A DNA stretch of 64,000 bases from a plasmid: sequence record NZ_CP025492.2; one strand, given 5' to 3'. Positions within the stretch are counted from its first letter, which is position 1. Every line of letters begins with the position of its first letter. The position numbers were made by a program. Of this stretch, positions 12,001-18,000 are shown in pieces.

Positions 12001-15000
12001 TATTACATCATTTAGTTTTAGGAGATAGTAAGAATGAATCAACCTCAACGAATTTTTATTGTTGGTCATCATGGTGCGGGTAAAGGATTATTAGCAAAGT
12101 CTGTGTCTCAATCATTAGGGTGGCGATTTGTCGATGCGGATTTGGGGTTAGAGTTCCATGTTGGACGACATGTGTGGGAAATACTTGGAGGCCCTGGGAG
12201 TGATGCTTTTTATGAATGTCAGTTTGATATATTAACTTCCCTTTGCACCCAAGAGCATATCATTGTGACAACGGATTCCAGCGTTGTTTTGTCATTAAAA
12301 AATCGTCAGTTATTGCACGATGAAATGACTGTATTTTTGGATGTGAGTACTCCGGTCCAAATCGATCGTACTGCACGCAATACTACAAGTTTATTGCCTA
12401 TACCAAGTTTGAGCGATTTTTTTGAGCAACTACATGATGAGCGAGATAATTTATATAAAGAGGTTGCTACACTCACTATGCATGGTGATGATGGGAAATT
12501 AGAGGAGCATACACGTTGTATTGTGACGGCTGTGGTGGGGAATGAAGAAATGTTACCCCAAAAAAACCTAACATCAATTTTGGAGAAAAAAGATTTTACT
12601 TTATACCATAAGGAATTTCACACGAAAGTTGAGCTAACTGAACAACAAGCCATATACCTGAAGTTGTTGGCACAAGGAAAAACAGCTAAAGAAATTGCGC
12701 GTGAAACTCATGTTTCTTACAGAACAGTTGAAGGAATGATTGCTAAATTGATGGAGTCCTTAGGATGTTCTTCCAGTAAAGAACTAATTGCTTTATTTCA
12801 TGAACAACCATGATTCTAAATGCATTCGATTGGCTTAGCTAATAAATAACTTTTTCGCGTTATTGGCATCAATCGTTCAATGGCGTAGCGCAGCATGGTT
12901 CTTGGCATTCGATAAGCATGGCTATCTAAAAATTCGATGAGGATAGCTTGGTTACGTTTTCCTACTTCTCGTAACATCCAGCCTACGGCCTTATGAATTA
13001 AATCATGATCGTCGCATAGCAGTTTTTCTGCAAGTTTAAGAGTGCAATCAAAATGATTATTTCGAATAAAATACCAAGTGGCGACAATGGCGATACGTTT
13101 TTCCCAAAGGTTAGTGCTTTCTGCAAGGGTGAAGAGGAGTGTTTTGTCCTTATCTAATAAATGCGCCCCAACAATCCAATGGGCTGAAGCGTCAACCAAA
13201 TTCCAGTTATTAATCTGATTGATATGAGTTAAATAAAATTGAAAAATCGTTTGCTTGAGGTCTATATCTCCTTTTTGATAATGAGTTACTAACATTAATA
13301 GCGCTAATAAGCGTTCTTCATTAATAGATGAATACAACAACTCTTGTAACAAAGAAAAGGGTAATACGGTTTGATAACGTTTGGCGACTTTTCTTAATTC
13401 AGGGACGCTTACACCTATAAATTGGTCATGCTCTGCATAATCTCCCGGCCCCGTTTTATAATAGATTGTTTTTGGCTGCGAATAAGGCTTTTTAAGTAAC
13501 TCGAGCTCGCTTCTAAGTGTTTTGAGTGACTCCATCATTTCGGTTTTATTTAGAGTTGTTGTCATAGTTAATATCTTATGTTAGTTATTTTATGCCTATG
13601 TATACTGCACTTTCATGAGGCGTTTTATAGAGCTCAAAATCAGTGAGGTAGATTCTTTCGTATTTTGGCTTTTCATTAAAATAGCTCCAAATAGTTTGCC
13701 AGGCATTAATGATTGCTGAGGGATTAGGCCCAATTGCTTTAAAAACCAGATAGTTGCCCGCGTTTATAGTGACTCTATCCAAGTGCGTAGCTTTGGATTC
13801 ATTCACAATTCCTATCCCAGCAGTAACTGTATAGTACCCTGATGAGTCGGACTCATAATGGTGATACACGCCATAAACGGGGCTATCTTGTTGTGTTTTG
13901 ATTTTTGAATCAAGAAATTGCTCCCAAAGATGAGGTATTCGTGCAGTTTTGGGATTAAAATCCTCTTCATTTTTTGTTCTTACACTCATTCCAGTTACTT
14001 TAAATTCTTGAATCTGGGTCAATTGGGGTATAATAACAGTCATATAAGGCTCCAAAGTAGAAGTTTTTAATTAATATAAGCCTGCATGGCATTGGCAATG
14101 ATGCGTTTATCCGCTTCACTGATTTTTAATAGGCCAAAACGAAATGGGTATCCCCAATTCTTGGTATTTTTTGTCAATTCGAGCGATTCAATAAGCGTGT
14201 GTATCGAAACATCAATCTTTTTATTGGCCCAAAGTACATTTCGTCGAAATGGATGAAAACCATTACCCATATCCACTTGATAGGGCTCACCTGGTAGAAC
14301 GATTCTAATTGCCGTAAATGCTTGCAGTTTTTCAATGCCTTTAAAGTGCAGCGTCGGCGAGTAATAAATGATGCAATCGTCCGCTTTTATTCTCTTTAGA
14401 GGTGCAAGTTTACCGTAGCAAACTTGCATAAACCCTCCTTCCACTCCAATTTGCACGTGGGACGCGCAGGCGACAGCCAGCCAGTTTTGGTTCATGATCC
14501 GTTCTTTGAAAAAAAGCGAATTCGATGACCATCTGGGTCGCAGGTTACAAACGTATAACCAAAATCCATCGGTGTTGGTTCTTGTATCATTTTAAAATTC
14601 TTAGTTTGATAATTTCTAAAAAGTTCATCAACGGCTTGCTCATCGGGAACCAAAATAGCGAGTTCGCTACCGCCACCTAATGCAGTTGGTGCAGGTAACG
14701 CAGAATTTTGAGACCATAATCCCAATCGCAAACCGGATTTTAATAAAAACATGGCGTAATCAGGCTCAGTGTGGATAGGCTGAGCATTGAGCAATTCTGA
14801 GTAAAAATGAGTACTGTTTTCTATATTGCTCACATAAAATAGAACTAAATTGGGGTCGAATGTCATGATTTTTCCTGTTTTTTATTTCGCTAAATTCATT
14901 GGAGAATATAAAACATACGGATGACAGTTTTTGTCAGCATCATTCAATAGGATTGGGGAATGTTATGTAGGGTGCGCCACTTCTTTAAAAGGGATTGTCG

Positions 15001-18000
15001 GCGTTCGGAATATTTTTGTTCTTTAATGGATAATTGAATAATTCTATCGGTTCTGAAGTGACGGAAGTCCTGCCTTAGTTCACACCAACCCACCATGAGA
15101 TGCACTTCATCAAAAAAGCCGAGCGCGATAGGCCAGAGTATTCGTGTCGAATGATTGTTTTGGAGATCTTGATATTCTAATTCGATTTTTCGTTCTAAAC
15201 GTATCGCTTTGCGAATGAGAATAAGATCACTATCTTTACTTTCGGCACATTTTCCTGGGGGAACTAAGAGTCCTGAAGTTTCTAGTTGGTGTTTTAATTC
15301 AGTAGGAAGGACTGCTGAAATTTTTGCAAGCACATTTTGAGCTGCGATTTTAAGTTGAGTATCCGCTCGTTGTGCAACCCAACTTGACCCTAGCACCATT
15401 GCCTCAATTTCATCATCTGAAAACATCAAAGGAGGCAACATAAAACCAGATTTAAGCACATAACCAACACCGGGCTCACCTTCAATGGGCGCGCCTAAGG
15501 ATTGTAAGGTTATTATATCTCGGTACAGAGTGCGTAGGCTTACGCCTAATTCTTCTGAAAGTTTTTTGCCACTCACGGGTAATCGGTGACGTCGTAATAA
15601 TTGAATTAAATCAAACAAACGTTCAGTTCGGGACAAGATACTGCTGCCAAATTATGCCAGTAGTATATCATGAATACTTATAGAACTAATAAGCTGCTTA
15701 TTATGATTATTTCTAATAGTAACTTAATTTTTGGGACTAATGGATGCCTTCAAGAAGTGCTTTAAAACCACCTGCTATCGGACTAGGTTGATTGGGATAA
15801 TAGGCCTTGTAGGCCTGGCGATCCACACTGAGCATAAACTGGTTAGATGCGAGTATATTCCAAAATAGCCGGATCTGTTTGGCAACAATGAATGCATTTA
15901 ACAGTTGTTTTTCTGTCGCTAATCCTAGCCAATTTTCGAAGCAAGCATCTTGAAATTTCAGGTAGGTTGAATCACCTTCTGTTACTCCATGGTGAGTAAT
16001 CGATTGTTCTAAACAGGTCTGTAACGAAAAAAATGGATGAAGGATAGCGGTCTCGCCCCAATCAACAAAAGTCATTCTTTTAGTAATTGGATCAAGAAGA
16101 ACATTTTTATCATGAAAATCGTGATAACCAATGGTTTCAGGAATCTTAAAGCTTGCTAATAATTTGCACTGTGCTGAAAATTTCGGGCTTAGGGCGTGTA
16201 GTGTTTGTAATTCTTTATCGGTGAGTCCCTCTGCTTTTAAAAAAGTAGTTTGCTTTAAGATGTGATCATAAAGAAAGGGTAATTGATTTAATCGCCAATC
16301 GGGTACACCAAGTTTGAGAAACGTAGCGATACACTCTTCAGATCTGCGTTGAATTGTGGCATATTGTTTTATTGCTTGGCATAATAGCTCTGGCTTGAAG
16401 TTGGTTTTAAGCGTTTGACGCAAAGAAATACCCGCATCCCTCATTAGAAAACAATGTAAATCCTCATTAATTTCAATTATATCGGGCACATTGGCATGGA
16501 ATTGGGATGACAATACTCGAATGATTTTGGGCTCATTAGATAGAAAAAAAGATGGTGGTGTTTGTTTTAAATAAAAATTCTCTGTTGATGTTGCAAATCG
16601 GATCACATGAGACCACGGTGTTGACAATACAATTTCTGGCGAGCGCTCTATTGAGTAGCCATTAGAAACCAGGTAATCGGTTCCCCATTTGAAAAGTGGT
16701 AGTAGATTATTCATTTTTGGAAGTTAAAATGCATAAAAAATGACGAGAAAAATATAAGTCTTACTTAACATAAAAAACTTCCCTTTAAATAGTTACCCAG
16801 AGAATATTATACATAAAAAAGCGAGTCTCAATAGAATAGTAAAAGCAGGATAAAATAATGGAACAGCAAGATGATTTACCTATATCCGGGGTATAAACAA
16901 AAGGATAATGGATTAATTCTTAGTTTGCTTATTCAACCCGGCGCCAAATGCAATCAAGTAGTAGGTGCTGTTGGAGGGGAACTCAAGATAAAAATCGCGG
17001 CACCTTCTATTGAAGATAAAGCCAACATGGAATTAGTGCGATACCTGTCTGTCTTATTCAAAGTCCCTAAAAGTCAAATTTAAATAAAGAGAGGCCTTCA
17101 GTCTCGACACAAGATCATTGAAGTCATTGGTTGTGGTGTTGATGCTCTCCAGTGGTGTAAAATTTAAAGAATGATTTTAAATAATGAGCCTAAATGCTGG
17201 ATACAACAATAATTGAGAGCAATTGGCGCTCTCGTGGCTTTAGTTTTGAGCTTTGGGAAGATCCCCCAGGTCAAATTTGGAAGGATTTTAACCATGGGCA
17301 ATAAAACGTTAAAACCTGCTATTGGAGAAGAAGTATTGATTCCAGCAGGAGTAGATCATACGGTTCAAACCAGTTCCACCACAGGGAGCCGTTGGTATTA
17401 TGGTTACAAAGTAAGAAGGTAAGGAAATGACACAAAAGAAAATATCATTAGAAAATGATGCTGTTCTGCAATTCATTGTTGATGAATTAATATCTTTACA
17501 TCATTGCCATACAATTATTTTATATGGCTCGCGCGCACGAGGAGACTTCACAGTAACCAGTGATTATGATGTTGCAGGGATTAGGGAAAAAGGAGATAAG
17601 CAACGAATTGCACGCTTTGATGAAGCACATCAAGTTTATCATGATATTTTTGTTTATCCAGAGAATGCTTTTGATTCAATTTCTGATGAACATTTATGTA
17701 TGTCAGATGGCATCGTTGTTGTTGAAAAAGCTTATTTTGGCACAGAGTTATTAAAAAAACTCTCTGCTTTTTTAATATTGCCTGAGTCCCTCCCTCCTGA
17801 TGAAATTACAGCACGTAGAGTGTGGTATCAAAAAATGCTGGCAAGGGCGTATACTAGAGATTTAGAAGGGAAATATCGCCATATTTGGTCAATCTTCACA
17901 ATTCTAGAGGATTATTTTGTATTCAAAGAATTGCGTTATCAAGGTCCAAAAAAAGCATTCAAGTATTTAGAAACACACGATCCAGAGACTTTATCATTAT

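Follow-up and report, generated by a model that had tools for sequence, protein, structure and literature searches.

A WYL-VOC-EVE cassette extended by Cass2-type and AlkD-like genes in Legionella: a candidate inducible unit for tolerance of DNA-targeting toxins

Introduction

Operons in which a YafY-type (HTH-WYL) regulator stands together with a stand-alone EVE protein and an EhpR/VOC protein have been predicted to provide 'putative ligand-activated antibiotic resistance' (Bell et al., BMC Biol 2020, PMC7641849). The same survey of EVE proteins places the UPF0310-type EVE clade in ligand-binding and antibiotic-resistance contexts, not in restriction systems (PMC7641849). AlkD, GyrI-like proteins, APH-like proteins and Legionella are not mentioned by these authors (PMC7641849), and no experimental characterisation of the cassette class was found in the literature. 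Here we describe a block of five minus-strand genes (positions 12816-15636) from a 64,000-nucleotide stretch of plasmid DNA of Legionella pneumophila (sequence record NZ_CP025492.2; the whole stretch is termed the window). A first-pass annotation of this DNA had read the block as a defence against bulky DNA-alkylating natural products, centred on a two-gene pairing, AlkD-like glycosylase plus GyrI-like cyclopropane hydrolase, of the kind that underlies yatakemycin and CC-1065 self-resistance. It did not recognise that the conserved core, WYL-VOC-EVE, is a class already described (PMC7641849). With moderate confidence, we propose that Legionella has elaborated this core into a horizontally mobile block of its own, one that provides inducible tolerance to DNA-binding or DNA-damaging xenobiotics.

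Several characterised proteins frame this comparison. The VOC-fold protein EhpR binds phenazine without modifying it, a mode of action that it shares with the bleomycin and mitomycin binders (PMC3175449). The catalytic residues of the DNA glycosylase AlkD are Trp109, Asp113 and Trp187 (PMC8626424), and the inactive AlkD2 is defined by loss of the DNA-penetrating B-helix in its N-terminal cap (PMC4433238). Cyclopropanoid hydrolases of the GyrI-like superfamily need an acidic pair, E157/E185, in which E185 is supported by H183 and Y187 (PMC5684135). Among WYL transcription factors, the palindrome of SiwR is placed between the -35 and -10 elements, and PafBC works by sigma adaptation.

The conserved cassette and its extension in Legionella

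The neighbourhood of EVE genes was surveyed in non-Legionella metagenome loci, 36 of which carry at least 1250 nucleotides (nt) upstream of EVE and 63 at least 450 nt. Within the first set, a VOC gene lies directly upstream of EVE in 26 loci, a WYL gene is found in 27 and both are found in 25, in the order and on the strand seen in the window; in the second, VOC directly precedes EVE in 45 of the 63. A GyrI-like gene is found 3' of EVE in only 3/63 loci, an AlkD gene stands there in Legionella-like contigs only, and the genes downstream of EVE are otherwise heterogeneous and mostly on the opposite strand. Anchoring on EVE thus gives the opposite picture from anchoring on AlkD, and the conserved unit is WYL->VOC->EVE. 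The Legionella block has the features of the YafY-EVE-VOC class: an HTH-WYL factor, a stand-alone EVE in an operon and an EhpR/VOC partner. As a separate observation, queuine tRNA-ribosyltransferase (Tgt, PF01702) accounts for 5 of the 92 open reading frames (ORFs) scanned as the two nearest downstream neighbours of EVE in loci L093-L169, which could reflect synteny within a lineage or some tie to base-exchange chemistry.

All five genes of the block lie on the minus strand. The YafY-type regulator (14944-15636; 230 residues from a TTG start) combines a Pfam HTH_11 winged helix (7.6e-19) with a WYL domain (1.5e-12). It is followed by an EhpR-like VOC protein of the glyoxalase/bleomycin-resistance fold (14492-14866; 124 residues; Glyoxalase, 1.3e-10) and by the stand-alone, PUA-like EVE protein of the UPF0310/PRK02268 family (14067-14495; 142 residues), which matches Pfam EVE at 5.9e-12 and the NCBIfam model PRK02268.1-2 (NF002616) at 6e-61, with 205 bits against a model cutoff of 139. 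The fourth gene encodes a Cass2-family GyrI-like effector-binding protein (Cass2, 7.6e-25; GyrI-like, 2e-19) of 152 residues if translation begins at an ATG preceded by GGAG (13585-14043) or of 156 residues from a TTG (13585-14055). The last encodes a candidate AlkD-family HEAT-like-repeat DNA glycosylase (12816-13565; 249 residues; PF08713, DNA_alkylation, 1e-59 and 202 bits). The WYL and VOC genes are separated by 77 nt, the VOC and EVE frames overlap by 4 nt (ATGA), EVE and the GyrI-like gene are 11 nt (TTG) or 23 nt (ATG) apart and a further 19 nt separates the GyrI-like gene from AlkD. The gene set, order and tight packing given by the first-pass annotation were thus recovered at the same coordinates and with the same families, with distances close to its gaps of 9-19 nt and its 4-nt overlap, and the gene at 14067 is an EVE gene as it had proposed. 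The operon also appears unsplit as proposed, with no terminator-like sites found on the minus strand inside the block, and the idea that WYL controls the block gained a conserved predicted operator before the VOC gene. A search of the spacers against Rfam gave zero matches.

The gene order is kept in hundreds of L. pneumophila assemblies, and a six-gene block that includes the APH-like gene upstream of the regulator is also present in L. quateirensis, L. longbeachae and Legionella L087. The names attached to identical proteins and the source assemblies identify the species of the window as L. pneumophila. The outer flanks differ between species, and a Tn3 transposase and insertion sequence (IS) elements lie near. 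Because this order is repeated across so many L. pneumophila assemblies and in other Legionella, the arrangement is real and inherited and not a product of chance.

Predicted operators and promoter, and the WYL regulator

The putative operator is a 17-bp palindrome described by the strict pattern CTGNCA-N5-TGNCAG, with the consensus CTG(A/C)CA-N5-TG(T/G/A)CAG. One copy, O2 (CTGACAAAAACTGTCAT; 14921-14937, minus strand), lies between the WYL and VOC genes, and exactly 10 nt past it stands a -10-like hexamer, TATATT (14905-14910, minus strand), of the predicted VOC-EVE-GyrI-AlkD promoter, from which transcription would start. The predicted operator takes roughly the ordinary -35 position of this promoter (~-39 to -23). 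Just 3' of the WYL stop codon, 26 of 34 unrelated loci carry a palindrome that fits the strict pattern, a number that rises to ~33 of the 34 when one-base variants are allowed, and the loci that carry it span GC contents from 38% to more than 65%. Across all 33 collected sites, palindrome positions 1-3, 5, 12-13 and 15-16 are invariant (CTG.C......TG.CA), and TAnnnT stands exactly +10 from the operator in 20 of the 33 loci, with TAnnnC there in several others. This operator and promoter geometry is newly defined here and is not part of the earlier description of the cassette class. Because the VOC promoter has no usable -35 element, we favour activation by the regulator over repression.

The second copy, O1 (CTGGCATAATTTGGCAG; 15644-15660, minus strand), matches the pattern perfectly and lies 8 nt 5' of the TTG start of the WYL gene, with a -10-like CATAAT (15656-15651) inside it; it is probably the autoregulatory site of this gene. 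An equivalent site upstream of WYL is present in 11/27 unrelated loci, and both O1 and O2 are kept in L. quateirensis (L084), Legionella L087, L. longbeachae (L170) and L. moravica (L173). A search of L. cherrii (L172) gave no match to the operator pattern. That only these two copies occur within the 64-kb window, flanking the WYL gene, suggests a local regulator and not the master of a regulon. Two other readings of operator-like sequence were set aside. A third site at 29963-29979 (CTGCCAGGTAATGGCAT) has one mismatch, lies between convergent genes and is attributed to chance, with 1.1 such sites expected. O1 can also be read as a sigma-54 promoter (TGGCA-N6-TGGCA), but GG and GC stand one base too close together for this, and the sequence fits the cassette operator.

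The regulator itself matches the generic WYL model of PADLOC at 2e-62 and, among PDB entries, aligns to CapW (8e-5) and more weakly to PafC and PafBC. It keeps an Arg-rich WYL motif, in which W184, R188, R192, R195 and R198 each reach 95% conservation or more among 33 orthologues. The protein stops ~28 residues past the WYL domain, whereas CapW and PafC run on for ~100 residues. Its resemblance to damage-responsive WYL factors raises the possibility, which we regard as rather unlikely, that the block is an SOS-independent DNA-damage unit, in which the regulator senses single-stranded DNA (ssDNA) and induces AlkD, and VOC, EVE and the Cass2-type protein have roles related to DNA or its lesions. 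L. pneumophila has no SOS response (PMC3820712), which makes a WYL regulator as damage sensor in this species attractive but unproven. Palindromes at or close to -35 are the sites through which WYL factors switch on damage regulons, the GAC-N7-GTC core of the operator is close to the DriD/DdaA box, R192 and R195 are spaced as R204 and R207 of SiwR, and EVE domains are readers of modified bases. However, most cassettes elsewhere carry no DNA-repair gene at all, both operator copies in the 64 kb are local, and many operator variants read GCC-N7-GGC and not GAC-N7-GTC. The regulator also departs from such factors in its domain composition, as taken up below, and AlkD is dispensable in some lineages.

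The VOC and EVE proteins

The closest solved relatives of the VOC protein are 3rhe (2e-37) and ATC0852 (1e-30), both nearer to it than EhpR (3sk1, 2.5e-17). The entry 3rhe was deposited as an 'NAD-dependent benzaldehyde dehydrogenase', yet it is a 148-residue VOC-fold protein and the name looks misannotated. At the usual position of the metal-binding Glu, the VOC family of the cassette has an invariant DPDGHR-x-R motif, and the N-terminal His is absent. The protein thus appears to lack the usual VOC metal site and is probably a binder of small molecules rather than a metalloenzyme.

The EVE protein has a mean column identity of 63% among 38 homologues, and a search of the PDB with it found no close solved relative. 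Its ATGA overlap with the VOC gene recurs in 35 of 51 unrelated loci, which argues for translational coupling of EVE to VOC; this coupling, like the operator geometry, is described here for the first time and goes beyond the published account of the class.

EVE domains are frequent in modification-dependent restriction systems, and WYL regulators such as BrxR and CapW govern defence islands. On these grounds the cassette could be related to phage defence, with EVE as a specificity module for modified phage DNA, and the match of the regulator to the PADLOC model and its alignment to CapW point the same way. We consider this very improbable: the block has no nuclease, ATPase or other effector, PADLOC returns zero matches for the VOC, EVE, GyrI-like and APH-like proteins and only a weak Cas13d match for AlkD (E 7e-4), and this EVE clade occurs in ligand-binding and antibiotic-resistance contexts according to the published survey (PMC7641849).

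The AlkD-like protein, a probable glycosylase

The three catalytic residues of AlkD map to W121, D125 and W196 of the AlkD-like protein, all invariant in 29 homologues. Its predicted structure has a mean predicted local distance difference test (pLDDT) score of 90.5, and Foldseek template modelling (TM) scores are 0.69-0.76 to AlkD against 0.54-0.65 to AlkD2 (E ~2e-3); EF3068 ranks first by E-value but with a lower TM score than AlkD. A conserved A-C linker of 29 residues is present, so the protein does not have an AlkD2-like deletion, but this segment, which corresponds to the B-helix, is modelled as low-confidence coil. The protein is probably an active alkylpurine glycosylase.

The clade to which it belongs is widespread, with homologues of 47-58% identity spread over numerous phyla of bacteria and the DPANN archaea. 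Around 80 orthologues (one locus per species, 6 kb on either side, searched with phmmer) no GyrI-like, EVE or WYL gene was found and there were two distant VOC matches only. A Pfam scan of 150 flanking ORFs, made as a control of sensitivity, returned a random assortment in which 2 of the 150 matched Glyoxalase, and a homologue of 65% identity is likewise adjoined by unrelated genes. Because the neighbours of orthologues are random, the link of AlkD to the block is not a trait of the clade; AlkD is a Legionella-specific add-on to the cassette.

The GyrI-like protein is of Cass2 type

The closest solved relative of the GyrI-like protein is Cass2 (3gk6), with an E-value of 6e-28 from the single sequence and 7.7e-49 from the family profile, and the protein scores 88 bits against the Cass2 family PF14526 (cutoff 27). 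Its AlphaFold model (pLDDT 83.7) superposes on Cass2 with a TM score of 0.85 at 34% identity, followed in the fold ranking by the drug-binding SAV2435 and the GyrI-like domain of BrlR. Five residues, E137, Y139, W40, W115 and W119, do not vary among 37 homologues. As in Vch_Cass2 (3GK6, PMC3048380), there is a single pocket Glu, E137 corresponding to Glu134, together with Tyr139 corresponding to Tyr136 and three Trp (Trp35/111/115 in the Vch_Cass2 pocket), and the YESD and IWSYF motifs follow the YESD and (V/I)WxYF motifs common to both proteins. The protein is therefore a candidate drug binder of Cass2 type, as judged from its sequence and model.

This assignment bears directly on the pairing claimed at first. 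If the block conferred resistance to yatakemycin, CC-1065 or duocarmycin, hydrolysis of the cyclopropane would fall to the GyrI-like protein and removal of the adducts to AlkD, in the manner of YtkR7/YtkR2 and C10R6/C10R5. In favour of this, the AlkD-like protein keeps both fold and catalytic triad, AlkD of the non-producer Bacillus cereus accommodates such adducts (PMC8626424), GyrI-like hydrolases are also known in non-producers (PMC5684135), and the two genes are adjacent, 19 nt apart. The pocket of the GyrI-like protein, however, is of the Cass2 family, with one Glu where the hydrolases need E157/E185. Its motif reads D-F-E-L-Y against H-x-E-x-Y in the hydrolases, and only the generic Glu, E137, is invariant. 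The hydrolase lin2189 (3b49, 5x5m) was recovered neither by a single-sequence search of the PDB nor by the family profile at E<=10, and takes fold rank 29-30 in Foldseek (TM 0.51-0.55, 8-10% identity), and the protein has 152 residues against ~205. This comparison was drawn from the Cass2 equivalences, the motifs and the fold ranking and not from a direct residue alignment to lin2189, so the equivalent of E157 is judged indirectly. With motif, single-Glu pocket, fold rank and profile search all against it, membership of the YtkR7/C10R6/lin2189 type was rejected.

Gene neighbourhoods speak in the same sense. L. moravica (L173) carries WYL-EVE-Cass2 with neither VOC nor AlkD, and L. cherrii (L172) carries WYL-aldo-keto reductase-EVE-Cass2, also without AlkD. 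Because the GyrI-like gene joins WYL and EVE without AlkD in these two species, it would not be the partner of AlkD; the variant cassettes point to a small-molecule-handling partner of WYL/EVE that is interchangeable, and the GyrI-like protein appears to be one such small-molecule-binding partner. No biosynthetic genes were found near the block, where the neighbours are APH, GNAT and regulator genes. We therefore regard a yatakemycin-type resistance as quite unlikely. In terms of the first-pass annotation, 'exactly this pairing' of AlkD-like glycosylase and GyrI-like hydrolase does not hold, as the GyrI-like protein is of Cass2 type and far from lin2189 in sequence and fold. Nor do AlkD and GyrI-like genes co-occur across genomes, a point on which that reading had been staked beforehand: the pairing is absent around AlkD in the 80 species, and AlkD is absent from the L. 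moravica and L. cherrii cassettes. Its suggestion of an AlkD-like enzyme in genotoxin defence survives in part, the catalytic triad being kept and a role in tolerance being plausible, whereas specificity for yatakemycin or CC-1065 is unsupported.

Proposed function and alternatives

In the proposed elaboration of the WYL-VOC-EVE core, a dimer of the regulator would bind O1 and O2, and its WYL domain would sense a stress ligand, which by analogy with PafBC, DriD, SiwR and DdaA is likeliest to be ssDNA or another signal derived from nucleic acid. The regulator would then activate the downstream promoter that has no usable -35 element, and would probably autoregulate at O1. VOC and the Cass2-type protein may bind planar or cationic aromatic toxins non-catalytically, EVE, made in a fixed ratio to VOC, may bind a modified base or nucleic acid, and the AlkD-type glycosylase, the addition of the Legionella lineage, would excise cationic N3/N7-alkylpurine lesions. 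A general inducible defence against toxins or genotoxins is plausible.

A number of observations weigh against this proposal. An operator at -39 to -23 could equally occlude RNA polymerase, which would make the regulator a repressor, and the regulator is without the WCX domain typical of the characterised DNA-damage WYL factors. The ligand binding of EhpR is weak (PMC3175449), and Cass2 itself gave no change of minimum inhibitory concentration in Vibrio (PMC3048380). In the AlkD-like protein, the B-helix segment is modelled as coil with a pLDDT of 48-63. A literature search for Legionella-specific data on genes of the block found no publication. Lastly, the block is disrupted in several strains. 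In L. pneumophila GCA_900450695.1 an IS3-type IS (HTH_Tnp_1 and rve ORFs; L002, ~6880-8136) splits the regulator after about residue 74, a natural regulator knockout. The GyrI-like protein lacks its first 19 residues in three strains of L. quateirensis (L084-L086, 5514-5580), where it is called at 94-141 residues, which suggests that the gene is decaying in this species. AlkD is cut into two ORFs by a 252-nt insertion in L. longbeachae (L170, 5958-6209) and carries an insertion of ~1.5 kb in L091. These disruptions indicate that neither the add-ons nor even the regulation is under strict selection. A further insertion, a 221-bp element resembling a miniature inverted-repeat transposable element (MITE) with terminal inverted repeats of 53 nt, separates VOC from the O2 promoter in L. 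longbeachae (L170, 3938-4158).

This decay is unevenly distributed over the block. Relative to the window, the regulator is 91-99% identical, VOC 84-98% and EVE 87-96%, compared with 74-89% for the GyrI-like protein and 78-89% for AlkD, and from the independent disruptions and this lower identity the 3' add-ons are less constrained than the core. One may then ask whether the functional unit is WYL-VOC-EVE alone, AlkD being a housekeeping glycosylase and the GyrI-like protein an unrelated binder, both transcribed by passive read-through in a mobile island. That AlkD and the GyrI-like gene are disrupted independently and diverge faster than WYL, VOC and EVE would fit, as would the spread of the AlkD clade, at 47-58% identity and beside unrelated neighbours, across bacterial and archaeal phyla. 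However, the order, the gaps of 11-23 nt and the lack of a terminator are kept in four or more Legionella species despite different flanks, and the association of GyrI-like, EVE and WYL genes recurs independently, so we hold passive carriage to be unlikely.

A bolder version of the tolerance role may also be considered, in which the cassette as a whole is a lesion- or ssDNA-sensing genotoxin response, EVE reads alkylated or adducted bases and Legionella, which is without LexA, recruited AlkD to form an SOS-independent 'sense, sequester and excise' system. This is speculative and we think it improbable, but if true, EVE would be the first modified-base reader shown to act in DNA-damage tolerance, as opposed to restriction or RNA biology.

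The WYL-VOC-EVE cassette is common in Proteobacteria, and the presence of AlkD gives a functional clue to its role. AlkD is the sole gene of the block whose family has a well-characterised biochemistry, and together with Cass2 it leads to the hypothesis that the cassette handles cationic or aromatic toxins that target DNA. The operator and promoter geometry makes the regulation testable and allows the regulon to be predicted in any genome. In Legionella, with no SOS response, the block may represent a stress-inducible unit equipped with a DNA-repair gene. The main value of the present analysis lies in the definition of the operator and in AlkD as a clue to a widespread, uncharacterised cassette; a caution also follows, namely that an adjacent 'AlkD-like + GyrI-like' pair is by itself no proof of yatakemycin-type resistance.

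Genomic neighbourhood

Upstream of the regulator lies the APH-like gene of the aminoglycoside/choline-kinase fold (15737-16714, minus strand, 325 residues), with a weak Pfam APH match (7.7e-5). It always adjoins the WYL gene in L. pneumophila, L. quateirensis, L087 and L. longbeachae, and from this synteny we infer that it belongs to the functional unit. Genes for APH-family kinases and GNAT acetyltransferases are unusually dense in this part of the window (1957-11907 and 15737-16714), with APH-family genes at 4295-5308, 9425-10375, 10372-11907 (a GNAT-APH fusion) and 15737-16714, and the neighbourhood looks like an island of genes resembling antibiotic-modifying enzymes. At the other end of the block, a convergent gene on the plus strand (12034-12813), whose product joins a shikimate-kinase-like P-loop domain to a LuxR/GerE HTH, has its stop codon only 2 nt from that of AlkD (12816), which leaves no space for terminators between the two units.

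Comparison with described systems

The Legionella block is not a homologue of the YtkR2/YtkR7 self-resistance pair. Its AlkD-like protein shares with B. cereus AlkD, YtkR2 and C10R5 the PF08713 fold, the catalytic triad and AlkD as nearest fold, yet it is only ~20% identical to them and falls in a separate, very widespread clade; unlike the genes of YtkR2 and C10R5, its gene lies outside a biosynthetic cluster and has no cyclopropanoid hydrolase as partner. The GyrI-like protein has in common with YtkR7, C10R6 and lin2189 (PMC5684135) the GyrI-like superfamily and a generic E-x-Y motif, and differs from lin2189 in length, in its single-Glu pocket and in a sequence relation that goes undetected by profile (E>10). 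It is closer to Cass2, likewise a stand-alone protein of ~150 residues tied to mobile DNA, although the Legionella gene stands in a WYL-regulator operon beside EVE and not in an integron cassette.

With EhpR (3SK1), the VOC protein shares the VOC fold, sequence similarity and an apparent lack of catalytic metal ligands; unlike EhpR, it is encoded outside a phenazine biosynthesis operon and with no cognate exporter adjacent. The regulator has the winged helix-turn-helix and WYL architecture of PafBC, DriD, SiwR and DdaA, and its palindromic operator, as in those systems, lies directly 5' of the -10 element in place of a -35. The core of the Legionella operator is one base shorter at either end than the DriD/DdaA box, CGAC-N7-GTCG, and the spacing of the SiwR arginines is kept. 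SiwR controls adjacent small 'detox-like' genes, and the Legionella regulator likewise adjoins such genes. In contrast to these four factors, it has 230 residues without WCX and is apparently local, with its two sites per 64 kb.

The nearest described system is the YafY-EVE-VOC class of Bell et al. (PMC7641849), with which the block has three families in common, an EVE of one and the same UPF0310-type clade and an EhpR-like VOC. Beyond that class, the Legionella block adds a Cass2-type GyrI-like gene and AlkD downstream and an APH-like gene upstream.

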